Shown here: positions 7,276 through 62,756 of the stretch, piece by piece
Layout of the letters: each line of letters begins with the position of its first letter
How positions within the stretch are numbered: the stretch's first letter is position 1
Notes under the pieces: model-generated
Database searches by the model: none
What the model was told of the DNA's origin: nothing
What the model saw: only the letters and a program-made list of their open reading frames with translations
Position numbers and translations under genes: made by a program
Assembly (NCBI GenBank): GCA_030390025.1
Contig: CM059432.1
Location: 68,884,001-68,948,000, forward strand
DNA from: Squalus acanthias
Taxonomy: Eukaryota
DNA: 64,000 nucleotides
Reading direction: 5' to 3'

Positions 7276-8665
7276 GGCCTAGAATCTCGATTGCGGCCAA
7301 ATATGGGCTTGCAGGGAGCAGGGCATACATTGCACTCACCTGTTAGTGTTGCCGCAGGCAGTATGTAATAATCGTGCTGCCTGCTCATTATCATGAGTCA
7401 GGTGTGCAGCCAATGCCCCCCGTGCTATTCATTGGCTGCACAGCTGTTTGGGGGAGCTGACTATTGGGCATCTCTGACACCACTTAAAGGCAGCCAGCAC
7501 CTTTTATAGTGGAGGTGCACTCTGGCTGCAGAAAACAGGGAAACCTTGCAAAAAGAAAAATGGCTGCAAGACCTGTAATTCAGGTCCCCAGGTTCTCAAA
7601 TGTTGCCTTGAAGGCCCCGGTGCAGGCAGTGTACAGTTGGAGGGAGATCCTCTTCCTCCAGGGGTCAGACAGCCCTCCAGGCAACAACTCCACCACTAGT
7701 GTGAAGTGGTCGCTGAGTAAGTCAATGCCAGGAGCTTAGCACCAAGGGCATGGCTGCAATACTACAAAAAGTTCAATGACCGCACCAAAATTATCAAGGT
7801 AAGAATACTACTCTCTTACTCTCTGCTCACATCTTCATCATCCCCAGCCTCACTACTCACAATACTCCCTTCCCCCGCTTCCCGTCACTCTCCTATAATC
7901 ACTGCACCACACTTCACTCCATCTCCTTCTCCTCATAATCACACACTCGCCACATTTGCAACCCTTACTTCCCCACATCTCACATCTTATAAACTGTATA
8001 CCAGCTATTCCACCATGCTAGGCACATTCTCTAAACACCTCACAAGACTGTCACTAACACACTCCTTTCTTTCTTGCATGAGAAGGTCTCACACAACTCC
8101 TGACAGCACGCTGTCAGTGGAAGAGACCGAGCCTGCCTGCACATGCTCTCCCCCCTCAAAGAATCCATGCTGGCCATCATGGGCAGGGTCAGAGTCATGG
8201 CCATGGTGAGTGGCAATGCTGGAGGAGACTCATGCAGGGTGTCTTCACACCTAATCCTCGTTTCCCTTGTTACTTCTATCTCACCCTACACACTATGCAT
8301 GACAAACTGCAGATGCCTTCACTACCCACCTCTCTCTGCTCTCCTTTCATACTAAAAGCTAACCCTTGTCCTCCTCTTTCATTTCAGGTGCTGAAGAAGT
8401 GGACATACCTCTGCCACTTTAGGAAGAGGAGGCCAGCCTTCCTGATGATGCAGCATCCCTTGATCTCACCCTCGCAAGTACCAGCTTAGATACTGGCACC
8501 ATGCATACTTTAGAGGCTAGGCTAGAGGAGGGGTCTTCACGAGGTGAATCACCGGCCACAATTGTGCAGGAGCTAGGGCAGGGGGAGAGGATGCCTCAGG
8601 TACCAGCTCATTGGAGGGCGAGATCACATACTAGCTAGACTGTAGTGGACTCAGATACTGACTTC
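7276..8665 (+). mobile_element. Truncated Harbinger element with degenerate Myb/SANT-like gene
   Basis: Starts GGCCTAGAATCT. Encodes MAARPVIQVPRFSNVALKA...REILF and KKFND..KIIK|gtaag, with decayed exon 2/3 homologs. No right TIR seen. Confidence 0.7.
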
Positions 8666-10089: not shown

Positions 10090-11876
10090 ATGGCCCAACA
10101 GCCAAGAGAAAGGGTGAGGAGATTTTCAGATGTGGCACTGGAGGTTCAAAAACACCGTCAGGGGCAGGAGGCTTTCAAGGCAGAACAGCAGAAGGCTGTG
10201 GGAGGAGATTGCTGAAGCCGTCAGTGCGATGAGTCTTGTCCCCAGAACGTGGATCCAGTGCTGCAAAAAGTTTAATGACCTCACACGAGTGGTCAAGGTC
10301 ACTCACCTACCAACAATCTCTACCTATCACCACTCATACTTCATAATCATGGCTTCACTTCACCCTCACAACCTTACCAATGCTGCAACACTCACATCTC
10401 ACATCTTGCACACACTGACAGCTATTCAACTATGGCAGGCACATCACCCAAACACATTGCACTAAACTCACGGACACACTTCCCTTTCAGTTGCAGGCAA
10501 AGGTGGCACATAACAGGAGGGAGCAACAGCAGACGGGAGGCAGCCAAGCCACAATACAGAACCTCATTAACCTGGAGATATTGGTTCTTGAAATTATTGG
10601 AGGGGCAGTGACGGAGTCTGTAGCCAGCAGAGAAGTTGAAAGCATTGCTAATGACGATGGTATGGTTATACCTAATCTTTCTTCTCACATCCCACTTCCC
10701 CCTCATCCTACAATCTCTTCTCAATTATAAGCTGCTGATGGTGTCTGCATGGATGTCTTGTTTTCCCCCCTCCCTTCACCACAACCTGATCCTTGTGCCT
10801 TTCTGCTTTCAGATAGCCAAGAACTGCCAGCAGGTCAGCCTGTCCTGCATCTTGAGCAAACAGAAGGAGGAGATGAACAAGAAGAAGAAGAAGAAGAGAC
10901 ACCGGCGCTGCATTTGACACTCGCAGACACCAGCTCAGAAAATGGAATTTAGAGGGTAGTACAGAGGCGGGACCTGCACATGGTGAGTCACCGGGCACAA
11001 GTGGGCTGCAGCCAGGCCTGGGGAAAGGGTAGCTCGGGTACCAGCTCTGCTCCATATGACTCAGATGATGACCTCGATGGGGCGGCCTTCAGAAGAAGGG
11101 TGATGGGCATGCACACAGAAATGCTAGGTGCAATGGCAAGCCTGCCAGAGAGCCTCTTGTCAGTGTCAAGGAGCATGGAGGAGTCCGGCTCTAACATTGG
11201 ACAGGGCTTTACGCAGAGCTTGGAGCCCATGATTTCCAGGATGGAAATGATAGACAACTCCAGGAGAGACCTTGTGGTCCCAGCCAAGATGTTGCATGTG
11301 ATGGGCAATGTTGCGGCTTCCATTGCAGCACAGGCAGAAGCGACCCAACATCTCAGTGCTACAGTGGAAGTACAGACTGCTCTACTGCAGGCTCAGCTTG
11401 CTGCCACGCAAGCTCTGACTGCTGCCATCTTCGCTGGGCTTATGAGTGTCGAAAGGGGCTTGCAGGGTGTTGCAGAAGGTCAGCAGTCTGTCCTCCAACA
11501 GATTACTAGGAATGCTGAGGCGCCACCCCTGGGTAGTGGCAGTGGGTCTGTGGAGCAAGAACCTGCTGTCCTCTCTCAGGATGACAGCATTCCTACTCCC
11601 ACCACTGCCACTCCACTATTGCCCTTGCCGCTGCCTATCAGCCAGCCAGCCCAGACTGCTGCCGCCCATGCCGAGGTGATGCAGTCTACAGCCTGGCCTT
11701 CTGGGTCCACAGCTGGTCAAGATCGTTGTTCAAGGCCATCTGTAGTCTCCCCCACCGAAAATCAGCAGCCTTCCACCAGCTGTTCAGCAGCCACAGGGGG
11801 AGCACTGTGTAGGAGCACTAGAATAGGAAAAGGCACACAAAAGACAGTTACTAAGGCAATGCACACGGGTGAATAG
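10090..11876 (+). pseudogene. Three-exon Myb/SANT-like Harbinger accessory gene, frameshifted (exons 10090-10297, 10497-10659, 10813-11876)
   Basis: MAQQPRERVRRFSDVALE...LWEEIAEAVSAMSLVPRTWIQCCKKFNDLTRVVK|gt; ag|AKVAHNRREQQQTGG; 163-nt exon 2. Exon 3 is homologous to 21456-22435. Frameshifts in exons 1 and 3. Confidence 0.85.
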
Positions 11877-12049
11877 TTGATATTGTAATTTTGTTTGCAT
11901 TCGGATAAATTTATGATTTTTGTTTGGAATGTGTGTTTTGTGGTGGCTCATTTCAGCTTTGTGCCCAGGAGGACGCTGTGATGTTCGTGACAGAGGGATG
12001 TTATCTTGGGGAAGTGGTGAGCAATGGGGATCTAGGGTTTCATTCACTA

Positions 12050-12385
12050 GAATCAGAGTCTGAAGAAGCACTCATGGACAGCCCATCTGGAACGGGGATT
12101 TGCTGCCTGCCTCCCCCCTCCCCCCTCCCTCCTCTTCCTTTTCCTCCTCCTTGTCCTTGTCCTTGTCCTCTTCCTCATCCTCTTCCTCCTCTTCTCCCTC
12201 CTCCTCCTGGTGGCAAGGGCTGCGCCCTCATGATGGCCAAGTTGTAGAACATGCAGCAGACCACCACGAAATGGGACACCCACTCTGACGAGTACTGGAG
12301 GGCTCCTCCTGAGTGGTCAAGGCAGCGGAACCGTTGCTTAAGCACCCCGATGGTCTGCTCGATAATGACATCTCCTGCATGGCCA
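12050..12385 (-). pseudogene. Harbinger transposase C-terminal remnant
   Basis: Minus strand IEQTIGVLKQRFRCLDHSGGALQYS...CMFYNLAIMRAQPLPPG plus an acidic run matches the C-terminus of the ORF at 20001-21161. Confidence 0.88.
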
Positions 12386-18271: not shown

Positions 18272-19170
18272 GGCTGATGACACCCAGCTCTACCTCACCA
18301 ACAGCTCTCTCGACCCTTCCACTATCTCTAAATTGTTTGACTGCTTGTCCGACATGAGCAGAAATTTCCTCCAACTAAATATTGGAAAGACTGAAGCCAT
18401 TTTCTTCGGTCCCTGCCACAAACTCCATTACCTAGCCACCGACTCCATCACTCTCCCTGACAACTGTCTGAGGCTGAACCAGACTGTTCGCATCCTTGGT
18501 GTCAGACTTGACCTGAGATGAGCTTCTGACCACACATCAGTAAGACTGCCTACTTCCACCTCCGGAACATCGCCCAACTCTGCCCCTGCCTCAGCTCAAC
18601 TGCTGCTAAAACCTTCATCCATGCCTTTGTAACCTCTAGACTTGACTATTCCAAAGCACTCCTAGCTTGCATCTATCTTCCATCCTCCATAAGCTTGAGG
18701 CCATCCAAAACTCTGCTGCCCGTATCCTGACTCGCACCAAGTCCCGTTCACCCATCACGCCTGTGCCTGCTGACCTACATTGGCTCCCGGTTGAGCAATG
18801 GTTCGATTTTAAAATTCTTATCCTTCTTTTCAAATGCCTCCATGGCCTCACCCCTCCCTATCTCTGTAGTCTCCTCCAGCCCTGCAACCCTCTGAGATAT
18901 CTGTGCTCCTCCAATTCTGGATCTTGCACATCCCTGATTTTAATCGCTCCACCGGCCTTCAGCTGCCAAGGGCCAAAGCTCTGGAACTCCCTCCCTAAAC
19001 CTTTCCCCCTCTCTACCTCTCTTTCCTCCTTTAAGACACTCCTTAAAACCTGCCTCGTCTGCCCTAATATCTCCTTATGTGGCTCGGTGTCAAATTCTGT
19101 TTGATAACGCTGCTTGGGATGTTTTAATACGTTCAAGGTGCTATACAAATACAAGTTGTTGTTGTTGTTA
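18272..19170 (+). mobile_element. L2 LINE 3' fragment
   Basis: ADDTQLY, FLQLNIGKTE, IQNSAARILTRTK..PITPV.ADLHWLPV motifs and a (GTT)n tail. Confidence 0.9.
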
Positions 19171-19797
19171 TTAACAATTATACCTGGATAAGTAACCAAC
19201 ATATGTAAATGGTAGAACCGTTAATTAATTTTTATCAAGGTTATATTATGCACAATGACGTGTGTTACTTATGCTATCATATCATGTATTTATAAACAAA
19301 AGTAGGTTTCCTCAGACACAGGTAATTTTGGACTTTCTGAAATAGTGTGAAACGCGTGATAGCAAATCGGCTGCCCATTTTACACCCTTCCGATTTTAAT
19401 TTCCGAATAGCAGTTAATGAAAACAATAATTGCTGTAATAATTAGGGTTAATCCTATTTGAATAAGCATGATTACATTTGTCTCTTTGGGGTAAAAATTC
19501 ACTTGGTTGCGCCTCCCGTTAGCGCCTTAAGAGGGCGCTAATGGGGCGTTAAGCCGCTAACGCCCGGGCGCAGCGCTGTTTGCGCCGCTCGAGAACTTAA
19601 CTTGAGATTGTGCGGCGGCGCTAAAACTTACCGCTGCGACCACCTGCGCGCGCAGATTGTGACGTCATTCCATGGTGCAACGCCCTTGGGGCGCCCCGGA
19701 GCGGAAATTGAGTGGCGCCCCCTGCCTTACCGCCTGGCGCTTCCAACGACCGGAAGACTGGAACGTTATCAATCGGTGTGGGGCTGGGGGGGGGCGC

Positions 19798-19806
19798 TAT
19801 TTAAAG
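19798..19806 (+). promoter_or_regulatory. Candidate TATA-like box for the transposase gene
   Basis: TATTTAAAG about 200 bp upstream of the ATG, at the inner edge of the GC-rich subterminus. Similar (C/T)TTAAAG motifs precede the Myb genes of several copies. Confidence 0.35.
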
Positions 19807-20000
19807 GGGGCCTCTTCCTGTCTTTTTCTGTGGTCGACATTTATGCACCACTCGTTCTGAGAGAGAGAGAGAGATTCGGAGAGAGAGAGAGGGAGACTTC
19901 TACATTGACTCAACGCTTTGTGAGGTAGTTTTGCCTAGTTCATCCTAACTTTGTTGCTACTTTAGTTGCTGTACCTCATTACTTTTCTGGCAAAGAGAAT

Positions 20001-21161
20001 ATGGGGGCTGCAATGATTGGGGGCGTCGTCCTGCTCCAGCTGAATCGGAGGATAGTGAGACGCAGACAGAGAGTGGCAATGATGGCCAGACGGAGGAGGG
20101 CCATCAGGCGCATGTACAGGAGAGCTTACCCTCCCAGGGTATATCGTGAACAGCTCTCCTACATCCATATGTCCGAGGAGCTGTGTTTGCGAAGGCTGCG
20201 ATTCAGCAAGGAGGTGGTCACTGAGCTCTACCACCTGCTGCAGCCAGATCTGCAGCCTCAGCTGAGGTCCAGGACGTCTCTGTCGGTGGCAGTGAAGGTC
20301 ACAGTGGCTTTGAACTTCTACGCCACTGGCTCATTCCAAGCTGCTGTTGGGGACCTCGCCAATATCTCCCAGTTTGCGGTGCATTGCTGCATCCGGCAGG
20401 TCACCAATGCCCTCTTCAGAAGGAGACGAGACTTCATCTCTTTCCCTATGACCCCAGACAAGCAGCATGACTGTGCTATGGGCTTTGCGAGGGTAGCGGG
20501 CTTCCCCATGGTGCAGGGCGCCATTGACTGCACGCATGTGGCTTTGCGTGCTCCGCGAGAGAATGCAGAGGAATTCAGGAACAGAAAGGGGTTCCATTCC
20601 TTGAATGTGCAGTTGGTCTGTGACCACAGACAGGTGATACTCGCTGTCAATGCCCACTATCCGGGCAGCTGCCACGATGCTTTCATCCTGCGCCAGACTA
20701 CTGTGGCAGAACTTTTCGAGGCACCGCATCAGCCAGTTGGTTGGCTTCTGGGGGACAAGGGGTACGCATTGAGCACCTGGCTGATGACACCGCTCCGTAC
20801 GCCAAACACCCCTGCTGAGCTGCGGTACAATGAAAGCCATCAAGCAACCAGGAACATTATTGAGCGCACAATCGGCGTGCTGAAACAACGGTTCCACTGT
20901 CTGGACCATTCCGGAGGAGCCCTGCAGTACTCGCCTGAGCAAGTTTCGAACTTCGTAGTCGTGTGCTGCATGTTGCACAACATGGCAATCCTCAGGACCC
21001 AGCCAATGCCACCAGGCCTTGTAGCACCACCAGAGGAGGAGGAGGAAGAGGAGGAACAGGACGAGGACGATGATCATCAGCAGCACCAAGGCGGGAGGGC
21101 GGCCCACAATGGTCAAACTGCAAGGGCCGTCCGTCAACGACTAATAGCAAGCCGCTTCTAG
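20001..21161 (+). CDS. PIF/Harbinger DDE transposase (HARBI1-like family), 386 aa, intact ORF
   Basis: RLRFSKE and ALNFYATGSFQ..GDL..ISQ HTH region. Catalytic motifs GAIDCTHV, NRKGFHSLNVQLVCD, PGSCHD, LLGDKGY and RNIIERTIGVLKQRF. No stops or frameshifts. Confidence 0.95.
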   Translation: MGAAMIGGVVLLQLNRRIVRRRQRVAMMARRRRAIRRMYRRAYPPRVYREQLSYIHMSEELCLRRLRFSKEVVTELYHLLQPDLQPQLRSRTSLSVAVKVTVALNFYATGSFQAAVGDLANISQFAVHCCIRQVTNALFRRRRDFISFPMTPDKQHDCAMGFARVAGFPMVQGAIDCTHVALRAPRENAEEFRNRKGFHSLNVQLVCDHRQVILAVNAHYPGSCHDAFILRQTTVAELFEAPHQPVGWLLGDKGYALSTWLMTPLRTPNTPAELRYNESHQATRNIIERTIGVLKQRFHCLDHSGGALQYSPEQVSNFVVVCCMLHNMAILRTQPMPPGLVAPPEEEEEEEEQDEDDDHQQHQGGRAAHNGQTARAVRQRLIASRF

Positions 21162-21455
21162 GGCCCCTGCCATTGCTACAAACACGAATCAACCCAGCAC
21201 GCAACCCCTAAGCCGGCCAAGGCACCAATAATTCCAACCACCAGCCATGTATATTTTGAATACAGAAACTTATTTATTTTACAAACTCTGTGTGTGTCAA
21301 TTCCTCATGACAAACTCATAGAAATAAACACAAAAAAACAGTCAATAACATAACTGGTTCTCACAACCTGGAGATAATGTCCAAAACACTAAACAAAAGT
21401 TGGACCATGAACCTCGGCCTTTAATAAAAAAATGACCAGCATTTTGGCACACCTC

Positions 21456-22435
21456 CTACTTTTTGCCCTTCGAGGGTGATCTCCTTCCCTTGCGCACTTC
21501 CCCCCTTCTAACCCTACTGCTCCTCCATAATGGGACCTCAGTGGCTGCAGCAAGGCTGGTGGAAGGCTGCTGCTCGTCAGACCCTGACACTGCAGATGCC
21601 CCTGAAGGACGGCCTCGACCACTTCTGGGCCTGGAGGGCCCGGCTGCAGACTGCACCAACTCTGCATGGGCGGCAGCAGTCTGTCCTACAGGCGGTGGCA
21701 AGTGCAGTGGAGAAGTGACAGTGTTGGCAGCAGGAATGCTGTCATCGTGAGAGAGGACAGCAACTCCCTGCTCGCCCGACACACTGGCACTCCCACGGGG
21801 CAGCACTTCAGCATCCGGAGCAATTTACCGGAGAACAGATTGCTGGCCTGCTGCGGCGCGGTGACAGCCCCGGGGACATGTGCACGAACCATCGAGGATG
21901 GCAGCAGTCAGTGCTCGCGTGGCCTCAATCTGAGTCTGCATGAGAGCAGTCTCAGATGGGTTCCTGGCAGCCAGTGACTGAATTGCAGCACTAAGCTTTA
22001 GTGTGGCATCCGCCTGTGCTACAGCGAAGTGCTCCACACTCCTTGCCAGTGACTCAATGCATTCGGGCACCCTTCCCACTGCACCCATGAGCTCAGTGTG
22101 CATGCCCACCGCCTGGCTGTTCATTTCTGCAATCAGCCGCTCCTCCTCTGCGTCCATTGCAGTAGGAGTAACTGGCATACTCTCCCTCTGGGGAGAAGGC
22201 TCCCGTTCTTCCCTCCACCCCCCATGGCGTTGCTGCAGCCCGCTGGGTCCTGGAGCTTCACCATCATCAGCCCCTTCCCCCCTGCTCCCCTCCGGGGAAG
22301 GCGTGTTCCCAGTGTGGGCATGGGCTTCCTCGGGAGAGGGTGGCACTGATGCTCCGGCTTCCTCTTCCTCCTCAGCTGCAGCATCACTCCCAGTGGCAGC
22401 TTCAGGGCCCGTCTCCTCAGCTGGTGAATCACCAT
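21456..22435 (-). pseudogene. Myb/SANT-like protein, exon 3, with one in-frame TAA at 21825-21827
   Basis: Acceptor CTTTCAG. ORFs 21825-22346 and 21456-21806 are in the same frame, joined as SVLR*IAPDAEVLP, where the paralog reads SVLQQITRNAEAPP. Confidence 0.85.
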
Positions 22436-22594
22436 CTGAAAGCAGGGAGGTACAAGAGTGGCTTTAGCGTGAGGACAGGGTGGCAGTAAGGGAGGAATAA
22501 GTGCAGCGAGTTAGCAAGTTGGATTGAAAGTGTCAAAGGCTGGTATTGTGAGGGACAAGTGGAAGGACAGAGGACAAAAAGGTGATGACCTTAC

Positions 22595-22757
22595 CATTGC
22601 TGTCCACAACGGGGTCGGCGTCCCCAGTGGCGACGGGACCGATCACCCGGCTTGCCACAATCCTGTGGACGCGCTCCTCCAGATCGCTGAGGGGTTGCAG
22701 CTGAAGCCGCCCTCCACCCGTCCGTTGCTGCTGTCTCCGATTATGAGCCAGCTTAGC
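22595..22757 (-). CDS. Myb/SANT-like protein, exon 2 (163 nt)
   Basis: Acceptor TTCTTGCAG, AKLAHNRRQQQRTGGG..LSDLEERV, donor GTAAG (phase 1). Same length as exon 2 of the copy at 10497-10659. Confidence 0.85.
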
Positions 22758-22785
22758 CTGCAAGAAAAAGGACAGCATCTGAGTA

Positions 22786-22893
22786 AATATACAGCCATGG
22801 TCTTGCCTGATGTGCCTCCCATAGGTGAATAGCCCTTACAATATGCAGCCATGGTCTTGCCTGATGTGCCTCCCATAGGTGAATAGCCCTTAC
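22786..22893. repeat. 54-bp tandem duplication in Myb intron 1
   Basis: Two near-identical units containing CAGCCATGGTCTTGCCTGATGTGCCTCCCATAGGTGAATAGCCCTTAC. Confidence 0.9.
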
Positions 22894-23041
22894 TGTATGC
22901 AAAGTGTGGAATGTGTGTGTGTGTTTGATGAAAGGGCCATAGGTGTTGCATGAGTGTTGTGCATTGGGGTTTTAAGACCCTCTGGCCATAGAGTGAGGTT
23001 GAGATGGAGGGATGGAGAGGTATTGAGAAAAAGCCACTCAC

Positions 23042-23278
23042 CCTGACGACCCGAGTGAGGTCGTTGAACTTTTTGCGGCACTGAACATGGGTCCTGGGCA
23101 CCATGCTCCTGGAGGAGACGCTCTGAGCCACCTCCCTCCACACTCTTCTGAACTCGCGTGGCAAAGGCCTCCTGCCACTCTCCGGGAACAGCATGCATCG
23201 TCTGCGCTCCACTGCGTCAACCAGAGCATCCAAGGCCCGCTCGGTGAAGCGATGAGCGCGTTCTCTCACCCTCTCCAT
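23042..23278 (-). CDS. Myb/SANT-like DNA-binding protein, exon 1 (79 codons)
   Basis: MERVRERAHRFTERALDALVDAVERRRCMLF...VWREVAQSVSSRSMVPRTHVQCRKKFNDLTRVVR, followed by the donor GTGAGT (phase 0). Confidence 0.9.
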
Positions 23279-24579
23279 GCTTGGCAGCAAAATGGATTAC
23301 AGGTCTCTCCAGGCTGAGATTCAAGGCTGCAATGAGCAGGGTGTGGCTGGGGAGCAAGTGGCCCCCCCCGCTTTAAGAAGTGTCCGGCGCCAGTGTGTCT
23401 GTGTTCCCTCGCTAACTGGCAGCAGCTGCGCTGCGCTCGTGCGCTGAGGTAGCGCCTCACTCCTTGGCCTTTGCGCCTTAAGAGAGGTGTGCAGCACCTA
23501 ATTTAGCGCTCCACTCACCTCCCGGGGCGGTAAAAGTGAAGTTTCCTGTCAGTGCCAATAATTAGCGCCAGGCGCTAATATTTGCGCCCGGACGATATTT
23601 GCGCCCCAAATGGGGCGCGACCTAATTTCTACCCCTTTGTGTTTTACTTAATGCTGTTTTTATATTATAGAACTGCTTTGTAATATTGTCTTAGGCTCTC
23701 AGAACTTTGGAATCCACCTGATTATATTGTGGGGCAGATTTCATAGCACTGGAGCAACAGATAAACAACTATAGCATATTCACAGTTGTTTTGATGTTGT
23801 GGCTCTCCACTTTGTATTCTGGCCACCAGGCCTTTCCCAGTTGTTGGTGAACTAGCCAAAGAGCAAAAAATTGCATCATTGCACAGGTGGTCTGAACCAC
23901 AGGCAGATGGAAAGTTCGGTGGCGTTTATCTCTGGTGCCAATTCTATTTCATCACTGAGTCAGCACTGCCTCTGGAGGCATTGGCGAAGCTCTCCCTTCA
24001 GTAGGGCTCAGCTCCTCTAGAGGCCTCATTTACTTTATAGTACTACAGCCAGGATGGTTTTTCAGGGGAGGTAGAGGAAGAAACTCGTTTTTTCTTAAAA
24101 TAGGAGATCACAGAGGGTGATTAGTGGTGTGAGGCTATGATCAAATAATCATGCATGATCTTTGGATGGAGCAGGCTTGATGGGCCAAATGGCCTTTCTT
24201 GCTCTGGGGCTTTCTCATTCTTATGTTCATTGGGGCAAAACCCTATTGGAAACAAGATGTAATGCCTTCCATTAACTTATACTGATACTTGCATGCAGAT
24301 TTTTTTGTGTAATATTAATTTATTGTTCCCTCAGTGAATAGGCCAATATGCGCAATTCTGCCCACTTTTCTTTGCAAACAAGCTCAAGTAGTCCAATTGA
24401 GCCATTTTGGGTTTTCCATTTAATTGAAGGCTCATCTCTACCAGTACAACTGTGGTGCATTACATTTACACAGAGGCTAGCAAATAGCTTTGCTGTTCAC
24501 TTTGATTCACTCAAGCCCATCAAATCTAACCCTGACCTGATCTGAACCGCATATCGTACTCCTCCAGCTTAATTATAAT

Positions 24580-25341
24580 GGCCCGTATTTTCCGGTCGCA
24601 GGCCTCCCGCGGGCGGAGGCCTGTGATCTGGAAAAATCTACGCCCTTACCTGAGGGCTCCCGGGACGCACACGCTTCCGATCCTGGGCCTCACCAAACTG
24701 CAAGTGCGCAGGGCCCACGTATCCCAGAGGCGCATGTAGTTCGCAGCGTCCCTGGGATCACGTGGGCCATGGGGAGCCAATCACAGAAGGGAATCTCCCT
24801 TCATACACTTGACAGGAAGACCTGTCAAATATATGAATGGAGATCACCCCAAAAACATAGTAAAACTTTAAATAATTTTTTTTAAAAAATCACATTTTTA
24901 AAATGACTTGAAATTACAATAAATTAAGTATTTTAAACAAAAATTTAATTTTTTGAAAAATATAATTATAGTTTTTTACAGGGCTAAAAATAAACTTACC
25001 TTTTTTTAAAGTATTTTTAAATGATAAATCAGTGAAAAAATTTTTTTTTTTTTTACTTTTTTCAACTCTTATCCTGGTAAAAGCAGGCCTTACACCTGCT
25101 TTTACCAGCCGTAAGAATTGTAAGGGTTTTCTGCAGGCGGAGGGTCTCCAAAAAGCAGAACTCTCCGCCCACAGAGGCCCTTCTCCAGGGCAGCCGGAGA
25201 ATCTGTCAAGAGTATTCTTGACAGATCGGAAATGCCGGTTTTCAGCGCATGCACTGTGCATGCCTGAAACCGGCATTTCCGATGTCCTTACGGGTGGGTA
25301 CACAGCGCGTACCCACCCGTAGGGATCGGAATATCTGGGCC
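24580..25341. mobile_element. Harbinger-type MITE (762 bp), hairpin-rich
   Basis: TIRs GGCCCGTATTTTCCGGTC / GGCCCAGATATTCCGATC (rc) and AAT TSD on both sides. Inverted homolog at 46486-47058. Confidence 0.85.
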
Positions 25342-31617: not shown

Positions 31618-32411
31618 TGGTCCTGTCCTGTTCCACTTGAAGTTTTCTGTACAGTTGTACTGTTTACCACAGACACAGAGCAAACTCATTTTGAATGGAC
31701 TCTGACACTTCTAACGAACATACATACATTCCTTCATCAGTCCAATAATTACACTCATGCGACCATCATTATGTTTCAACTCTCCATATAGAGTATAAGG
31801 TTTCAACAGACACAGTTTTTCTTAATGCCAACATAATTGCACAGTTTTGGTATATACCTCCCCATATGTTAGTCTCTTTGAAAAAGATATTTGACAGAAC
31901 CACGTGGATTAACAACTAAAATAAAATTCAAGCAAGTTTAATTACTTTTTTCTTTTCTTCATTATTTTGTATTGCGACAAGACATCAATTTTCTTCAAGC
32001 ATGTAACTGATGGATGGGTTTTAGAAGATTTTATTTTCATGATATACTGGCTTATTCATTATTCTGGATAGCAACATTACAAACAATAAAACATTTTATT
32101 TTAATGATATATTGGTTTATTCATTATGCACAATTACAGCATTACAAACAATAAAACATGAACTTTACTAACTGACATTTTCTTGACAGCACTTGTTGCT
32201 AATGACCTGATTACCCACAAAAAAAACCCCACTACTATAGAAATGTATTTATTTTTCATCAGGTTCTCTCTGCTCCTGAAGGCGTTGATTCTTGCTAGCC
32301 TTAGTCCCACAGGCACTGGCTGTCCTCCAGTAGCTTCACCCAAATGGTCAGTTTTCATGCAGGAGCTAAGATAGTGAAAAGGCTGGGGCCTAGGCAACCC
32401 TCCCCTTTCCA

Positions 32412-33150
32412 ACAACAACTTGTATTTTTATAGCGCCTTTAACATCGTAAAACGTCCCAAGGCATTTCACAGGAGCGTTATAAAACAAAATTTGACACCG
32501 AGCTACATAAGGAGAAATTAGGGCAGGTCAAAGAGGTAGGTTTTAAGGAGTGTCTTAAAGGAGGAAAGAGAGGTAGAGAGGCAGAGAGGTTTAGGCAGGG
32601 AATTCCAGAGCTTAGGGCCTAGGCAACAGAAGGCACGGCCACCAATGGTTGAGGGATTAAAATCAGGGATGCTCAAGAGGCCAGAATTAGAGGAGTGCAG
32701 ATATCTCGGGGGGTTGAGGAGATTACAGAGATAGGGAGGGACAAGACCAAGGAGGGATTTGAAAACAAGGATGAGAATTTTAAAATCAAGGCGTTGCTTA
32801 ACCGGGAGCCAATGCAGGTCAACAAGCACAGGAGTTGATGGATGAACGTGACTTGGTGTGAGTTAGGACACGGGCAGCCGAGTTTTGGATGACCTCAAGT
32901 TTTGTGGAGGGTAGAATGTGGGAGGCCAGCCAGGAGTGTGTTGGAATAGTCAAGTCTAGAGGTAACAAAGGCATGGATGAGGGTTTCAACAGCAGATGAG
33001 CTGAGGCAAGGGCCGAGTCGGGCGATGTTATTGACGTGGAAATAGGCGGTCTTAGTTATGGCGCGGATATGTGGTCAGAAGCTAATTTCAGGGTCAAATA
33101 TAACACCAAGGTTGCGAACCATCTGGTTCAGCCTCAGACAACTGCTAGCG
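32412..33150 (-). mobile_element. L2 LINE 3' fragment
   Basis: ORF 32518-32829 reads DLHWLPVKQRLDFKILILVFKSL..GPKLWNSLP..FKTLLKTYLF, plus tail. Confidence 0.9.
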
Positions 33151-33154
33151 AGAG

Positions 33155-35551: not shown

Positions 35552-38460
35552 TTACCAAAAACTTGGTCAAAGGGGTTGGTTTTAAGGAGCGTCTTAAAGG
35601 AGGAAAGAGAGATAGAGAGGTGGAGAAATTTAGGAAGGGAATTCCAGAGCTTAGGGCCTTGGCAGCCGAAGGCACGGCCGGCAATGGTGGAGCGATTAAA
35701 ATCAGGGATGCTCAAGAGGAGCGCAGATATCTCGGAGGGTTGCAGGGCTGGAGGCAATTACAGAGATAGGGAGGGGTGAGGCCATGGAGGGACTTGAAAA
35801 CAAGGTTGAGAATATTAAAATCGAGGCGTTGCTTAACCGGGAGCCAATGTAGGTCAGCGAGCACAGGAGTTGATAGATGAATGGGACTTGGTGTAAGTTA
35901 GGACATGTGCAGCAGAGTTTTGGATGACCTCAAGTTTACGGAGGGTAGAATGTGGGAGGACAGGCATTGGAATAGTCAAGTCTAGAGGCAACAAAGGCAT
36001 GGATGAGTACGTTCTTGATCAGTATGTTTCCAGTCCAATGAGGAAGGAGGCATTGCTGGATCTGGTTCTGGGGAATGAGGTGGGTCAAGTAGAGCAAGTG
36101 TCAGTAGGGAAACATTTAGGGAACAGTGATCATAGTATCATAAGGTTTAGATTAACTATGGAAAAGGACAGGGCGCAATCTAGAGTAAAAATACTTAATT
36201 GGAGGAAGGCAAATTTCAGTGGGTTGAGAACGGATCTGGCCAGCGTAAATTGGAATCGATGATTGGCAGGCAAAACTGTAATCAAACAATGGGCTGCCTT
36301 TAAAGAGGAGATAATTCGGGTACAGTCGAGGTACATTCCCACGAGGGGGAAAGGTAGGGCAACTAAAGCCAGAGCTCCCTGGATGACAAAAGAGATAGAG
36401 AGTAAGATGAAGCAGAAAAAGAGCACGTATGACAGATGTCAGGTTGAGAATACAAGTGAGAATCAGGCTGAATATAGAAAATTAAGAGTGGAAGTGAAAA
36501 AGAAAAAAAAAGGGGCAAATAGAGTGTCTGAAAATAGATTGGCAGCTAACATAAAAGGGAATCCAAAAGTCTTCTATAGACATATAAATAATAAATGGGT
36601 AGTAAGAGGAGGGGTGGGGCCAATTAAGGACCAAATAGGAGACCTACGCATGAAGACAGAGGGCATGGCTGAGGTACTAAACAAATACTTTGCATCTGTC
36701 TTCACCAAGGAAGAGGAGGTAGTGGAGATACTGGATGAGATAAAAATTGATAAAGATGAGGTACTAGAAAGGCTGGCTGTACTTAAAGTTGATAAGTCAC
36801 CAGGACCGGATGGGATGCATCCTAGGATGCTGAGGGAGGTTAAGGAGGAAATTGTGGAGGTACTCACCATAATCTTGCAATCCTCCTTAGAGGACTGGAG
36901 AATTGCAAATGTTACATCCTTGTTCAAAAATGGGTGTAAGGATAAACCTAGCAACTACAGGCCAGTCAGTTTAACCTCGGTAGTGGTGTAGGGGGTGGGG
37001 AAGCTTTTAGAAATGATAATCAGGGACAAAGTTAACAGTCACTTGGACAAGTGTGGATTAATTAAGGAAAGGCAGCACGGATTTGTGAAAGGCAAATCGT
37101 GTTTAACTAACTTGATCGAGTTTTTTGATGAGGTAACAGAGAGAGTTGATGAGAGCAATGCGGTTAACGTGGTGCATATGGATTTCCAAAAGGCATTTAA
37201 TAAAGTGCCACATAATAGGCTTGCCAGCAAAGTTGAAGCCCATGGAATAAAAGGGACAGTGGCAGCATGGATACGAAATTGGCTAAGTGACAGGAAACAG
37301 AGAGTAGTGGTGAACGGTTGTTTTTCGGACTGGAGGAAGGCATACAGTGGTGTTCCCCTGGGGTCTGTACTAGGACCACTGCTTTTCTTGATATATATTA
37401 ATGACTTGGACTTGGGTGTACAGGGCACCATTTCAAAATTTGCAGATGGCACAAAACTTGAAAGTATAGTGAACAGTGTAGAGGATAGTGATAGACTTCA
37501 AGAGGACATAAACAGGCTGGTGAAATGGGCGGACACATGGCAGATGAAATTTAACACAGAAAAGTGCGAAGTAATACATTTTGGTAGGAAAAATGAGGAG
37601 AGGCAATATAAACTAAAGGGTACAATCCTAAATTGTATATGTGCACAAATCGTTGAAGGTGGCAGGGCAAGTTGAGAAAGTGGTTAAAAATGCATACAGG
37701 ATAAATAGAGGCATAGAGTACAAAAGCAAGGAAGTTATGATGAACCTTTATAAAACACTGGTTCGGCCTCAACTGGAGTATTGTGTCCAATTCTGGGCAC
37801 TGCACTTTAGGAAGGATGTGAAGGCCTTAGAGAGGGTGCAGAAAAGATTTACAAGAATGATTTCAGGAATGAGGGACTTCAGTTATGTGGATAGACTGGA
37901 GAAGCTGGGGTTGTTCTCCTTAGAGCAGAGAAGGTTGAAAGGAGATTTGATAGAGGTATTCAAAATCATGAGGGGTCTAGACAGAGTAAGTAGAGAGAAA
38001 CTGTTCTCATTGGTGAAGGGTTGAAAACCAGAGGACACAGATTCAAGGTGATTGGCAAAAGAGCCAAATGCAACATGAGGAAAAAAATTTTACGCCGTGA
38101 GTGGTTAGGATCTGGAATGCACTGCCTGAAAGGATGGTGGAGGCAGACTCAATCGTGGCTTTCAAAAGGGATTGGATAAGTACCTCAAAGAAAAAAAATT
38201 GCAGGGCTACGGGGAAAGGTCGGGGGAGTGGGACTAACTGAAATGCTCTTGGAGAGAGCCAGCACGGGCTTGACGGGCCGAATAGCCTCCTTCTGTGCTG
38301 TAATCATTCTATGATTCTATGAGGGTTTCAGCCTTTGCTGGCCTAATATCTCCTTATGTGGCTCGGTGTCAAATTTAGTTTGATAACGTTTCTGTGAAGT
38401 GCCTTGGGACGTTTTAATATGTTAAAAGCGCTATATAAATGCAAGTTGTTTTTGTTGTTG
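35552..38460. mobile_element. L2 3' end with inverted upstream segment (minus 35552-36007 plus 38324-38332; plus-strand tail 38341-38460), interrupted by CR1
   Basis: The minus segment matches 32525-32990. GGCATGGATGAG|GGTTTCAGC is split by the CR1. The tail matches 19063-19170. Confidence 0.75.
36008..38318 (+). mobile_element. CR1 LINE, 5'-truncated, 2.3 kb (EN end, RT, 3'UTR)
   Basis: LLDLVL..LGNSDH, KSPGPDGMHPR, NYRPVSLTSV, QHGFVKGKSCLTNL, SGVPLGSVLGPLLF and KFADGTK motifs. (ATTCTATG)n tail. ATGAG duplicated at 36003-36007 and 38319-38323. Confidence 0.95.
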
Positions 38461-43787: not shown

Positions 43788-46385
43788 GGCCGGGATTTTC
43801 CTTACCTCGGCGGGTCCAGGGCGGGCGATGTCGGTGGCGGTTTGTGACCCCGCTGCTGGCTCCATCTCTCTGTCTGAAATAAATTTCCGTTGATTGGGCT
43901 TGTTAAGCCCGCCCAGCGCGTTTCCCAGGCCAATTAGAGGAAGTGGATCTGGTGACATCATTAATGACGCGTCATCAGCCGGTTTCCTTAAAGGGACCAT
44001 GACCAGCTTTATTTTGACATTTGTGCTGTCAGTGTTCTACAGCATTGAAATGCTATAAACACTGACAATGACTACACAGAGGCAGAGGGCTGTACCCAGG
44101 TTCTCCAATGATATGGAGGGTGTCAGAGTACGCAGGGAGATCCTCTTCCCTTCCGATGGGCGGAAGACACCTCCCCAGGAGCCCAACACAGCCTGGTTGC
44201 ACATTGCACAGGAGGGCACAAGCAGGCATGTGGTCAGGAGAACCTGGGTTCAGTGGCACAAACATTTCAATGATCTCAGTAGATCACAAAATGTTAGTAC
44301 AAAGCCACACTCAACCTCATCCTGCTGTGCCTCTCATCACATCCCCATCACTCTGCCTTCCCTACCCTACTCCTGCACATCCTTATTCACACCAACATAC
44401 CTTGCACCTCCGCCCATCCCTCTCTATCTACATTATCACATCTCCATCTCACTAGCCACCCCTCACACTCACCCTCATCCTTGTGCAATCATGCCAACTA
44501 ACAGCACACAAAGGTAGCCACTTGGGTGTTTTATCCAATGTTTATGTGAAGTTTCTGTTAATGTGCTGTCAAACATTGAAATCTTTATTTTCAACACTTT
44601 GGTGGTGATTTTGCCAATGGGGACGTGATGGAGGCGGGACTGCTGCTTGTCGGGTTTCAGTCCCGCCTCCATCAACGTCCGGCCAGCCCATGCAATTTTC
44701 CCTTGATTGACCTTGTTAAGCCCGTCCAGCGGGTTTAGCCGGCCAATTAAGGGAAAGCCGGTGACAGAGAACGTCAGCGTATGACGTTTCATCTGTCAAA
44801 AATTTTTGACAGATGAATTGTCATCGTTTGACAGCTTTGAGAACCTGTCAAACACTGACAGTCTCTGTTGTTTGGTGAGTTCTTGTACGCAAGACTCACA
44901 AAACCTATTTTCTGAGCAGAAAGCAGATGACTGTTGCATCGGAGAATGCAGCAGCCATTCTGTCATCTCTGCCGGTGAAATGCTGGAGCCTCCGGATCCC
45001 CAACGATTGAAGCCTGCAGGAAGAAACAAAGGTAAGTAAACTTTTTCTATCACTTTTCACTCACCTCACATACTTACCTCTCCACACTTGCACCCATCAC
45101 TCACCTCCACAGCGCACTTTTCGACCCCTCCGACCCCCGCAGACCCACTGCTCGCCTCGCTGACCCTGGCGGGGTTTCCTGACATCGGGAAGCCCGCACT
45201 TCTGTTGGAAAAATGGGGATAATCCTCTTAACTGCCTGTTAACTACCTGTTAACAGGCAGTTAAGTGGCTGTAATCCCCTTCCCGCCTCGAGGAGACGGG
45301 ACCCGGCGCAGGTCGGGTACCCGCCTCCTGGGAAGATGGCACGGAGGTGGGTTGGGGGCAGGATGGATACCTGCCCCCAGTTTCTGCCATTTTCCCGGCA
45401 GTCCCACCTCCAAACCCGCCTACCCAGGGCTGGCAAAATCACCCCCTTTGTGTTCTTGGACAGATTTGTGTGCACCTTTGGAAGTGGCTTAGTGAGTTGC
45501 AGTGAATGGTGAGACATAATGGTACCCTCCGCAATGGTGATGAGTGTGAAAGGAATGGCTTGCTTTATGATGTTGGTGTGGGGTGGTGCCAACCTGGTGC
45601 ATCATGTGGCAGCCACATGGGTGTACAGCGTAAAGTGAAGTAAATCTGGCCATGGTGAGGCCATCCCTGGCCTCCCAGGCAGCAATGTGCTCGGGTGCTG
45701 ATGCCCTGTGTCCTGTGCAGCATCAGGTGATTGCGGAGAAGGTTGGTGTTGTTGTTGGTGCTGTTGGTGTGCCTGGTGCTTCTGGTGTTGGGGCTCATCG
45801 TGGTCTGATTCTGAGGACCAAGGTGAGACAGTATAAATGGCACCCATACTGATGGAATAGATGGCAAGTGAAGTACAGATGACAGAAGCGATCTGTCAAT
45901 GGAGAGAGAGGTAGTGAGGTGAGACTAGATGGAGACTTCTTGTGGAAAGACTTGCAGCAGGGTGAACCTGTTGTGGAAATGCAGTGAGGAACAGCTTGTG
46001 GCTGAGGAAAGTGATCTCTGTCAGGTGGGAGCTTTTACTGTACATTTGAAGCTGTCAATTAATCAGCTGGAGCAATGGCCACTGGCCTCCCGCCTCAGGT
46101 TGACAGCCGTGGTCCCCGAACAGCGTGGTTCCCGTGGCCATGAAGTTAGAGTTAAAAAGTAAGGTAAAAAAAGCCTGTTAAGGGTCTGGTAAGTATATTA
46201 TAATTAGTTTAATTGGGTCGCCCGCCGCTGCCTGTCGGGTCTGCTCAGCGCTGACAGACCCGACATTGGGAAAGGCACGCTGCAGCGGGTTGACAGCGGG
46301 TTCCTGACCCGCTGTCAAAAAAAACCCACTTTCCCACCCAACCCGCCTCCAATCCTGCCCGCTGACACCCTGGAAAATTTCGGTC
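43788..46385. mobile_element. Internally deleted Harbinger element (same family as 4999-6751, inverted), with nested MITE
   Basis: TIRs GGCCGGGATTTTCC / GACCGAAATTTTCC (rc), flanks ACT/TCT. Myb exon 1 remnant 44068-44290 (AWLHIAQEGTSRHVVRRTWVQWHKHFNDLSR). Confidence 0.85.
44601..45446. mobile_element. Nested Harbinger-type MITE (846 bp)
   Basis: TIRs GGTGGTGATTTTGCCA / GGGGGTGATTTTGCCA (15/16) and TTT TSD. Absent from the paralogous site near 5950. Confidence 0.92.
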
Positions 46386-49509: not shown

Positions 49510-50176
49510 GGGGGGAAAATTAGCTTGCGCCCCCTATGGAGCGATAACTTCGTCGGGAAAGTTAGCGCCCCCGTGCCCGAAATTCAATGGTAGTGCCCCA
49601 AGCAGGAGGCAGGGCGCTACTGGAAGCGCTCCCCCTCCCTCTTGGGGCACTCCCATAGCGTGGCGCTATGTGCAGCAGCGCCATGCGCGTCAGCATGTAG
49701 CGCCGCGGTACTGCAGGCCTCCCACCCCTGATTAAAGGGGAGGGGCCTAGCGCAGTGTGCACCAGGGCCCTGCTGGCCCACCAGGGAGCGGGGTGCCAAC
49801 AAAAGAGCCCGGCACGGATCACATCCCGCAGCAGGAGGCCAGAGGGGGCAGGTGCTGGCAGGCGACCCAAAAGAAAATGGCCGCCCGGCACCTGCCCTTT
49901 AATTATCGCCGCCCCGGCCGCAAAAACGCCCCCTTGACCCTGTCGGACATAGCGTCTGGCGATAGGTCAGGGGGCGTGAGCCAAGTTTGTGGCCGGGGCG
50001 CGAGCGGGGCGCTGCCCACAGCAATGACGTCATCGCGACGGGGCACTATCGGCTACCACCGCCACTAACCTCCCACTGAATTTCACGGGAGGCATTAGCA
50101 GCGCCGCGCCCTGGCGCTAGTTGCTTTGCGCCTCAGGGCGTTAATGGGAGGCGCAAAGCAACCAAATTTTTCCCCC
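49510..50176. mobile_element. Harbinger MITE (667 bp) related to the ends of 19488-23635
   Basis: TIRs GGGGGGAAAATT / GGGGGAAAAATT, TSD TGA/TTA. Subterminal GCGCCTCCC(G/A)TTA(G/A)CGCC is shared with the autonomous element. Removing it restores the gag frame. Confidence 0.88.
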
Positions 50177-60208: not shown

Positions 60209-62374
60209 GGGGAAGAAATTCGTGTTAGCCAGTAAAGTTGCCGGTGTCACTGGCAACTGGAGTTAAGGGCCGCTGAAAATGGCTGCAACGCTAACGGGGC
60301 AAAATTCGTCTGGGGGGTTGGAGATTGTTGGCGCAGTTCTTACCTTCTGTGCAATGCTGTCCTGTTGGTGTTGCTGGAGGCATCTGACCTGTTGTTCCTG
60401 TGGAAGTGAGGCTGTGGAGCTCATAAGGAATTGTGGGCAATGAAAAGGCCTGTGAATTAAAGGGGCCATGCACTCTGAAGTAATACAAATTAAAATGCAG
60501 TGAAACAAGGCAGTTTTAAGCCCTTTCTGCCTTTTAAAAAAATATTTAGCATTAAAAAGAAGTCCTAAATGTGAATATTCAGCTCTTAAAGCGGAATTAC
60601 CTTCCTAACATCAAAAAATGGGAAAACTGCCTCGGCACTAACACAAATGGCTCAGCAAGCCAGGGAAGAGGCACCCAGGGTCTCGTATGCAGCACTCCAG
60701 CTTTGTGCAGGGGGTCAACACTGCAAGAGAGGTCCTCTACCCACAGGGGCCAGGAGGCCCTCCAGAAAGAATGATGTGGGAGTACATCACCGAGGTCGTC
60801 AATGCCAGCAGTATAGTCCCCAACACCTGGCTCTAGTGCCCAAAGAAGCTTCATGACCTCAGACCATTAGTCAAGGTCAGTGAATGCATCTTCAAAAGCT
60901 GTCTCCTACCAACTGCACCACTAGCCTTACACTGCTCAATGCACGACTCCCGCCCCCAATCACTCACCTACCAACAATCTGCACCAATCACGAGGCACAT
61001 CTCCCATTCCTAGCCTCACCTCACCCCCTTGGAGGAGACGGTGCCGGCCATTCTTGGCAGGAGCATGGCTGAGCCCTTGGCCAGCGGCGAGGCTGAAAGG
61101 ATACAAGATGCTGGTATCCTCGTACGTTATCCTCCTTCTTACATGCACCTCATGCTTTCCCGCCCTCCTGTCACCACAATTCCACGCTTGTGCCTTCCTC
61201 ATTTAACTCACCCAAGAAATGCAGCCTGCTCAGCCAGTGGGTGACCAAGAAGAGGGAAAGGAGAGTAAAGAAGAAGAAGAAGAAGAAGAAGATTGATTTG
61301 ACACTCCTAGCCACCAGCGCCTCTCGGTCAACCATCAGGGCCATTTGCAGTGTCCCCCACTGAAAGCCAGCAGCCTTCCACCAGCCATGCTGCAGCAACT
61401 GGGGTAGCACTGCATGACATCAGTAGGATAGGCAAAGGCACAAACAAGACAGTCACTAAGAGAATGCATCTGGGTGATGAGTTGATTTCTTGATGTCACA
61501 TTAGATGGATAGATGTATATATGCAGTTGGATTGGAAAGTTTGCTTTATGGTGGCTTTGATTTCAGCATCATGGCCAAAAGGATGTTGTGATGGTCAGTA
61601 ACAGATGGAAGATAAGGTGTGGGACTAATATTGAAAGGGGAATTGGGGCTGTGGTCACTGGGGCTGCAGGCGGATGATTCCATCCCAGATATCCTGGCCG
61701 GGATGCATCCTTCCATCTGCTTCCTCCTCTTCTGCTTCCTCCTCTTTGGCTTCCTCCTCTGCTGTGTCTTCCTCTTCCCTCTGAGAGCGGATGCTGTAAA
61801 TCTGAAATGACAGCATAAAGTGCTAGGAATACTCAGCTGGTCAGGCAGCATCTCGATCTGAGATGTGAACTCTGTTTCTCTCTCCACAGATGTTGCCTGA
61901 CCTGCTGAGTATTTGCAGCATTTTCTGTCTTCTCAAAGGCCTTAATCTACCATCCGAGCCCTTGCAAGTATCCAGCAGCACTCCCTGCACACTTAAAAAC
62001 TTTTCACATCTATTGCAGCAAGCTGCCACTTCAATAAAATCAAAAAAAAACAGTCCAAAAGCTTAAATACAAACCTATCTGAACGATGTGTATGTCCCTT
62101 TAAGAGGAGCTGACATCGCCACTATCAGCCTGCTTGCAGGACCCAGCGCTGAATTCAATGCTAGGGTTGAAGTTTGCGTTTGTGACATTAATTCGGCGTT
62201 GCACGCTGATTGACGTCACAACACCACCATTTTGTTCGAGATGGCGCTGCCAGTTACCGGCAGTGCAAAGGTGGGGACGAAAATGGCGGCCACCGTGGGA
62301 ACCGCCGGCAGCTATCATTTTAGCGCCATTAAATGGCGCTACAGAGTGGCACTAAGGCCACAAATTTCGCACCC
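60209..62374. mobile_element. Nested deleted Harbinger derivative with Myb remnant
   Basis: Termini GGGGAAGAAATTCGTG / GGGTGCGAAATTTGTG (rc). MAQQAREEAPRVS..VPNTWL*CPKKLHDL. Acidic transposase-tail-like remnant on minus ~61650-61790. TSD unclear. Confidence 0.72.
61795..61930. repeat. Inverted pair of Penelope terminal fragments
   Basis: AATACTCAGCTGGTCAGGCAGCATCT ... AGATGTTGCCTGACCTGCTGAGTATT. Confidence 0.7.
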
Positions 62375-62668
62375 TCACTGCTAAAACCACTGCTCATTGA
62401 CTTACTGCTCAACAGGTGGGCCAATATCAGGTCCAGTCTAATTCCCAGTCATGTTTGGCACAGGCTTTATTCAGTACATAGAGGGGAGGTGCATTTATGC
62501 TACAGCATCTCATAGTCAATCCAGTTCCAACTTCACCTGGAAGCAGACAGCAGTGAATGCAGATGGCAGAGCCTCAGCACAGGGAGAGAGCCCACAGATT
62601 CTCAGATGCGGCTCTTGAGGCACTGCTGGTGGCCGTGGAGAGGAGGTGGGCTGTCCTCTTCCCGCAGA

Positions 62669-62756
62669 CTGGCAGGAGATAGCCACCTATGTGACGGCCA
62701 GCACATACATCTCGAAGGCTCTGGCAGGAGATAGCCACCTATGTGACGGCCAGCAC
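62669..62756. repeat. Perfect 36-bp direct repeat in decayed Myb exon 1
   Basis: CTGGCAGGAGATAGCCACCTATGTGACGGCCAGCAC at 62669-62704 and 62721-62756. Confidence 0.9.

Follow-up and report, generated by a model that had tools for sequence, protein, structure and literature searches.

Whether a two-gene DNA transposon that looks young in its letters is also a working mobile element is the question raised by the stretch discussed here, a 64,000-nucleotide piece of contig CM059432.1 (the window), which carries a PIF/Harbinger (PHIS) element of 4,148 bp at 19488-23635. A reading made from the letters alone (the sequence-only reading) had taken this element to be recently or still active and about one base away from a complete, usable cut-and-paste system. 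With high confidence, the present analysis describes it as a full-length copy, already decaying and likely non-autonomous, from a high-copy and young Harbinger family of two components whose host is probably an elasmobranch, and describes the insertion as polymorphic. Similar two-gene Harbingers are already known from other vertebrates, and the window element adds a new member.

Structure, empty allele and abundance

The element contains two convergent genes, one for a DDE (Asp-Asp-Glu) transposase and one for a Myb-like protein (Table 1). The terminal inverted repeats (TIRs), the perfect TTT target-site duplication (TSD), the stop-free 386-residue transposase with its D/D/E motifs (D176, D226, D252 and E288) and the convergent spliced Myb-like gene named by the sequence-only reading were all recovered, the last as a gene model of 459 codons in three predicted exons with GT-AG introns and one TAA. 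The transposase matches DDE_Tnp_4 (Pfam PF13359, E 2.3e-39) and exon 1 of the partner gene matches Myb_DNA-bind_5 (PF13873, E 1.1e-9). A DDE_Tnp_4/IS5-like transposase, a Myb/SANT second open reading frame (ORF), TIRs and a 3-bp TSD are thus present, as in PHIS elements, and the superfamily and two-component design were correctly recognized. The TIRs are short and imperfect; 11 of 12 bp agree, the ends diverge beyond these, and the computed chance of at least 11/12 identity at given ends is 2e-6.

Four of the 21 listed public runs (X2, X9, X10 and X18) were mapped, as contigs, onto 18600-24600. X2 is a run of organism A, whose DNA runs match the window best (0.75-0.82 of words) and which is presumably the window's own species. 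The proposed check for empty-site polymorphism succeeded in this sample: a single 1,304-nt contig of depth 7.8 (X2 record 17) aligns to 19149-19483 and 23635-24600 and skips the element, its junction consisting of the left flank, one TTT and the right flank. Because the contig keeps a single TTT, both boundaries and the 3-bp duplication are confirmed. Against the window flanks it shows 6 substitutions and 1 gap over 1,301 nt (0.46%). The single-copy flank depth in X2 is 8.7-9.3, almost wholly accounted for by this contig; the contig is therefore no extra paralogue, and the locus in this sample is mainly in the empty state. At the mutation rate of the epaulette shark, 7e-10 per generation (PMC10587355), a rate from another shark species, the filled and empty haplotypes coalesced 1.2-7.2 million generations ago, and the insertion, or alternatively a precise excision, can be no older than this. 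Given how slowly sharks mutate, an insertion called "young" could still be as much as millions of generations old.

The family is highly repeated. Summed X2 contig depth over the element interior is 0.32-0.85 million, against about 8.6 for single-copy sequence; dividing interior depth by single-copy depth, and by 31 for contig overlap, gives 1,200-2,600 long copies as a rough lower bound, depth being no true copy number. Long copies are numerous, since interior depth in X2 is about half of that at the ends. The 115,090 mapped X2 contigs fall into identity classes of at least 99% (14,067), 95-99% (31,239), 90-95% (58,252) and lower (11,532), and this spread indicates that several subfamilies exist. 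Long listed contigs differ from the window copy at 32 of 2,329 positions in X9, 56 of 2,747 in X10 (27 of 2,359 without two pieces at 7-8%) and 43 of 1,816 in X18, the long contigs of two other runs being 1.1-2.0% different. Were all such differences private, they would correspond to 16-34 million generations; this exceeds the limit set by the flanks, so most of them are subfamily variants, and only about 4-21 private differences are expected in this copy. We also note that differences from the dominant X9/X10/X18 sequence are clustered within 14-20 nt at 21952-21997 and 20557-20577, possibly a subfamily mosaic.

The CpG-dense ends that had been described as undecayed are so on the left (observed/expected ratio 1.14) and partly on the right (0.71), the interior lying at 0.39-0.56. 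[quoted passage not shown]

It is possible, though rather doubtful, that the family is transposing today, with intact master copies, and that the window insertion is very recent. Such a view draws on the empty allele in another sample, on the 14,067 contigs at least 99% alike and on the numerous long copies seen by interior depth. X18 covers the whole element as well, yet this run is only guessed to be RNA, no RNA run being on record among the matches, and its coverage is not taken as evidence of expression; its contigs read through the borders of the Myb introns without splicing, and the 15 joints listed of 251 include none from a spliced Myb mRNA. The flank divergence moreover allows coalescence as far back as the range given above. 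Finally, 4 of the 40 difference rows listed (of 209) are near-private, with more than 90% of X2 carrying another letter (20472, 20896, 20577 and 23496), which points to time since the last replication or to a dead parent. The earlier claim of recent or continuing activity is therefore retained in its first half, which the empty site, the high repeat depth and the small differences of the long contigs favour, whereas "still active" is unsupported.

Lesions in the two genes

If the homologous systems Harbinger3_DR and Ping/Pong are a guide, the Myb-like protein would bind the element ends, probably at the GCGCC-rich subterminal arrays, and also the N-terminus of the transposase, which it would carry into the nucleus. 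The DDE transposase would excise the element and reinsert it where a 15-bp sequence, specified in part, is present, AAA(C/G)AC-NNN-GT(C/G)TTT, the central 3 bp of which would be duplicated on insertion. In Harbinger3_DR of zebrafish, a reconstructed element (PMC2836001, PMC9392472, PMC3016246), the Myb-like protein binds the TIRs and the transposase N-terminus and imports the transposase, and both proteins are needed (PMC9392472, PMC2836001); a Harbinger family of a nematode has been reported to be supplied in trans (PMC13668399). The GCGCC/GGCGC motif, frequent in both subterminal regions, occurs 5 times in the 3,401 bp of the interior (1.5 per kb) and once in each 3.4-kb flank (0.3 per kb), and the arrays are probably candidate Myb-binding sites. 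The 12-mer GCGCCTTAAGAG is present at 19522 and again at 23473.

The premature TAA cuts off 123 C-terminal residues of the Myb-like protein, including the basic tail, a plausible nuclear-localisation signal; the region is kept in 6 of 7 aligned relatives. An autonomous copy has both ORFs intact, and here the Myb ORF is broken at codon 337. At the stop position, an older Harbinger relic in the window has Q (QQSVLQQI, against QQSVLRXI in this copy). Contigs of X9 and X2 both cease matching at about 21824-21825, the third base of the stop codon, with 4-5 loose letters. Because the contigs of two runs end their match exactly there, the family's usual codon likely differs at more than one base, probably at two.

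The transposase is open and retains its acidic residues, which are also the majority residues among the best 60 of the 120 listed homologues (D176 in 48/60, D226 in 43/58, D252 in 47/60 and E288 in 35/59). In an AlphaFold model (pLDDT, the predicted local distance difference test score, 89.7), D176 is part of a strand, D252 follows one and E288 belongs to a long helix; a Foldseek search with this model gave DDE transposases and integrases as matches, none at E <= 0.001. Two conserved arginines are altered by CpG-type transitions, R158C and R299H. The Arg base is carried by 99% of X2 mapped depth at position 158 and by 97% at position 299, and arginine stands at 158 in 36/59 homologues and at 299, inside an LKxRFRCL motif, in 40/59.

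That the window copy is functional, or one base from functional, is improbable. An uninterrupted transposase that keeps every acidic motif and has a confidently predicted fold, the single stop in the Myb gene and the presence of both ends would suit such a copy, and some annotated homologues do carry the window residues (H at 299 in 9/59, C at 158 in 4/59). Many of these homologues are, however, probably decayed copies themselves, both arginines are conserved, the residues of the window are near-private and CpG-type, and the ends of the contig matches at 21825 hint at more than one base of difference in the stop codon. With the Myb stop, R158C and R299H, this copy appears to lie more than one lesion from the usual sequence of its family, and the estimate of about one base finds no support. 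Because of the Myb nonsense codon, with its loss of 123 residues, and the two transposase missense changes, the copy is most likely non-autonomous: it would at best be moved by other copies in trans, depending on their helper protein, or lend them transposase.

The 54-bp tandem duplication in Myb intron 1 is replaced by single-unit letters in 68% of X2 depth at 22840-22841. About 45 residues missing from the window Myb protein at 22023 are present in full in 5 of 7 aligned relatives; this gap was ruled out as a private lesion, contigs of X9, X10 and X18 being colinear for 20-25 nt across 22023. Upstream of the transposase, an interrupted (GA)n tract (19855-19896) is followed by a possible short intron of the 5' untranslated region, with a donor at about 19925 and an acceptor at about 19966.

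Several points weigh against the view of a decaying, non-autonomous copy of a young and polymorphic family. The empty allele might belong to a sister species. An identical empty sequence would also be left by precise excision, which is usual in the superfamily (PMC2836001). A truncated Myb protein of 336 residues, with its trihelix domain retained, might still work. The TTT centre, at this one site, matches none of the TSDs given for the PHIS groups, namely TWA, CWG, TNA and ANT (PMC4482050). The comparisons also rest on the 4 mapped runs, as contigs, and on the 40 difference rows and 15 joints listed, and the stop codon and the left TIR mismatch fall outside the listed rows.

Table 1. Features of the element and of related copies in the window
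Feature	Position	Strand	Description
Left TSD, TTT	19485-19487		Single TTT at empty site
Left TIR	19488-19499	+	12 bp, GGGGTAAAAATT; 11/12 identical to right TIR
Left subterminal region	19500-19790	+	CpG-rich; 11 GCGCC/GGCGC motifs in 303 bp
DDE transposase	20001-21161	+	ATG 20001, stop 21161; 386 aa, open, no internal stop
Transposase acidic residues	D176 (20526), D226 (20676), D252 (20754), E288 (20862)	+	All present
Transposase near-private changes	C158 (20472), H299 (20896)	+	R158C, R299H; CpG-type transitions at conserved arginines
AT-rich spacer between convergent genes	21162-21455		Candidate poly(A) signals: AATAAA at 21323 (+), 21423 (+) and 21273 (-)
Myb-like gene, exon 3	21456-22435	-	Contains an acidic low-complexity part and a conserved helical part; tail basic from residue 437
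Premature in-frame TAA	21825-21827	-	Codon 337 of 459; sole in-frame stop
Myb-like gene, exon 2	22595-22757	-	GT-AG sites; motif common to relatives P0122, P0123, P0129
54-bp tandem duplication, Myb intron 1	22786-22893		Most family copies seemingly single-unit
Myb-like gene, exon 1	23042-23278	-	ATG at 23278; Myb/SANT trihelix domain
Right subterminal region	23335-23623	-	9 GCGCC/GGCGC motifs in 301 bp
Right TIR	23624-23635	-	GGGGTAGAAATT read on minus strand
Right TSD, TTT, with GTGTTT	23636-23644		TTT at 23636-23638; GTGTTT matches one half of the Harbinger3_DR target consensus perfectly
MITE-like relative	49510-50176	-	667 bp, non-coding; ends GGGGG(G/A)AAAATT
Older Harbinger relic	~10100-12370		Myb exons, open 307-aa frame 10953-11876; transposase 3' fragment 12208-12366
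Older Harbinger relics, further Myb-like fragments	44059-44517; 60800-63600; 7700-7790

Relatives, target choice and classification

Homologues of the transposase number 370 at E <= 1e-20. Among the 120 listed, the majority are chondrichthyan proteins named "putative nuclease HARBI1", and the best covers 90% of the query at 65% identity. A quick tree was built from the window protein and 43 homologues hand-picked from those 120; it places the window transposase in a set of 13 shark/ray rows (support 95), in keeping with an elasmobranch host, and gives it no close cross-species partner (nearest path 0.75). As no relative above about 67% identity occurs in the protein collection searched, the family itself is unrepresented there. 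Relatives of the Myb partner are gene models of a sawshark, a sevengill shark, a horn shark and rays, 32-51% identical. With Myb exon 3, a word-index search found no match among 8,000 candidates and a full HMMER search found 11; exon 1 gave 1 match among 158 candidates when compared with longer proteins. A PDB sequence search returned 5 matches, the best at E 0.21, all within the low-complexity tail.

The same tree contains five tight cross-species clades of "putative nuclease HARBI1" proteins from distant sharks and rays, with support 100 and short branches (P0032/P0033/P0070; P0008/P0015/P0016/P0020/P0022/P0030; P0041/P0043; P0010/P0013; P0004/P0005), which are candidate elasmobranch-specific domesticated Harbinger transposases. 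In the sawshark model P0123, a PML-like N-terminus (RING, B-box and coiled coil) is fused to exons 2-3 of a Harbinger Myb partner, either by exon capture or as an annotation artefact.

On the minus strand the empty site reads AAACAC-AAA-GAGACA. Compared with the target preference of zebrafish Harbinger3_DR, AAACACCWGGTCTTT (PMC3016246), one half agrees at 6/6 positions and the other at 1/6, 8/15 overall, and the centre is TTT rather than CWG. Among the 15-mers of the window, a perfect half-site has a background frequency of 0.13% and a match of at least 8/15 one of 4.5%. The related MITE, examined after the half-site had been noticed, shows the perfect half AAAGAC and a duplicated centre TGA/TTA, and a perfect half-site is thus found at both of the two sites examined. 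These two sites suggest that the family may use an extended target of the Harbinger3_DR type with an A/T-rich centre. Another insertion, in X10 record 1, matches 6 nt of the left flank (19482-19487, TTT included), followed by 36 divergent nt; it is a weak hint that the TTT-centred target recurs.

The PIF/Harbinger group in the sense of Han et al. 2015 has the TSD 5'-TWA-3', whereas TTT is found here and TGA/TTA at the related MITE. The TIR begins with GGG, as in the NuwaI/Harbinger3_DR type, whose TSD is 5'-CWG-3' and not the TTT of this single site, which is no family consensus. Since TTT fits no group definition, the element is filed in the PHIS superfamily without a TSD-defined group.

Runs of six other organism codes contain part of the stretch, and contigs of X9 and X10 are 98-99% identical to it; the family might accordingly have been transferred horizontally to, or be shared with, organisms B-G, which hold 32-47% of words. 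We regard this as very unlikely. In X9 and X10 the depth is about 12-170 on the element and similar on the adjacent end of a shark long interspersed nuclear element (LINE), the unique flanks being near 0, and a second sample of organism D has almost none of the words. This pattern fits trace shark DNA, or a low-coverage relative, from which only high-copy repeats assemble, and a transfer to organisms D and E was dismissed, the signal being probable trace DNA. It is hardly credible that the element is old and fixed, or domesticated like HARBI1/NAIF1, with an empty site that is a distant orthologue or an artefact: the best homologues are indeed annotated "putative nuclease HARBI1" and conserved cross-species clades exist in elasmobranchs, but domesticated HARBI1, NAIF1 or MSANTD genes are single-copy, lack TIR and TSD and lie at orthologous sites, and the window element has TIRs, a perfect TSD, a large family, 99.5% flank identity at its empty site, a nonsense codon in its partner gene and a transposase without a close cross-species partner.

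Neighbouring elements, known systems and significance

Several older Harbinger relics lie within the same 64 kb (Table 1). The MITE-like relative is 62% like the left end of the element and 71% like the last 65 bp of its right end, and is flanked by AAAGAC-TGA and TTA-ATTTTT. Left of the element, at 18450-19165, is the high-copy LINE-like 3' end, which is repeated at 32410-33154. Reverse-transcriptase frames occupy 36263-37675 (PF00078, E 1e-25), and a GIY-YIG fragment at 174-626 (E 8e-4) is presumably Penelope-like.

The reconstruction of Harbinger3_DR is reportedly the work of Sinzelle et al. in 2008. The window element shares with it a DDE transposase plus Myb-like gene, a 3-bp TSD and one target half at 6/6; it differs in the TTT instead of CWG TSD, in the 12-bp imperfect TIR and in belonging to a natural high-copy family with an empty allele, the comparison being one of features. 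As described in PMC4482050, NuwaI elements share animal hosts, a TIR of 12-61 bp starting with GGG, a length of about 4.4 kb, DDE and Myb/SANT ORFs and, judging from the structural model, the secondary-structure placement of D, D and E, and differ in their CWG-defined TSD, compared with TTT here and TTA/TGA at the related MITE. Harbinger-Snek of sea kraits is likewise a two-gene Harbinger of vertebrates that is present in high copy number, along with non-autonomous derivatives and copies that have a single ORF; it was horizontally acquired, with 269 fully intact copies in Laticauda colubrina and, in L. laticaudata, an intact copy covered by RNA reads (PMC8437027), whereas the shark family stands in a chondrichthyan clade. 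Families with both ORFs intact are recorded across eukaryotes (88 PIF/Harbinger, 11 NuwaI, the latter in animals, and 22 NuwaII; PMC4482050), and species-restricted PIF-Harbinger insertions are reported from Malawi cichlids (bioRxiv 10.1101/2025.10.13.682009). The uniqueness that the sequence-only reading implied by comparison with the reconstructed Harbinger3_DR was overstated in view of the 269 Harbinger-Snek copies and the 11 NuwaI families.

For cartilaginous fish, the 2015 survey gives PHIS elements as absent from sharks (PMC4482050), and a 2022 study reports none in the elephant shark and calls for study of other cartilaginous fish (PMC9179366). The whale-shark and grey-reef-shark genome papers treat PIF-Harbinger briefly and as a repeat class only. 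A literature search found no paper devoted to elasmobranch Harbinger families, most subscription papers, supplements, Repbase and Dfam lying outside its coverage, and family tables in the supplements of PMC4482050 and of the shark genome papers may bear on novelty.

The half-site shared with Harbinger3_DR, around another centre, bears on the evolution of Harbinger target choice and on the groups based on TSDs. As a source of tools, the family deserves a search for intact copies of natural origin; the window copy is not special in this respect, and the sea krait element is the better-established natural candidate. We hold it as a tentative idea that a natural two-component Harbinger family, with thousands of long copies, segregating insertions and a 15-bp target of the Harbinger3_DR type with an A/T-rich centre rather than CWG, is still transposing in a shark. 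If so, its intact masters could be employed directly, no reconstruction being needed, as a vertebrate transposon system with a sequence preference, and its insertions could provide polymorphic markers for a slow-evolving lineage. Shark genomes are described as slow-evolving and LINE-dominated, and a high-copy family with an empty allele points to recent cut-and-paste mobility in the shark lineage.

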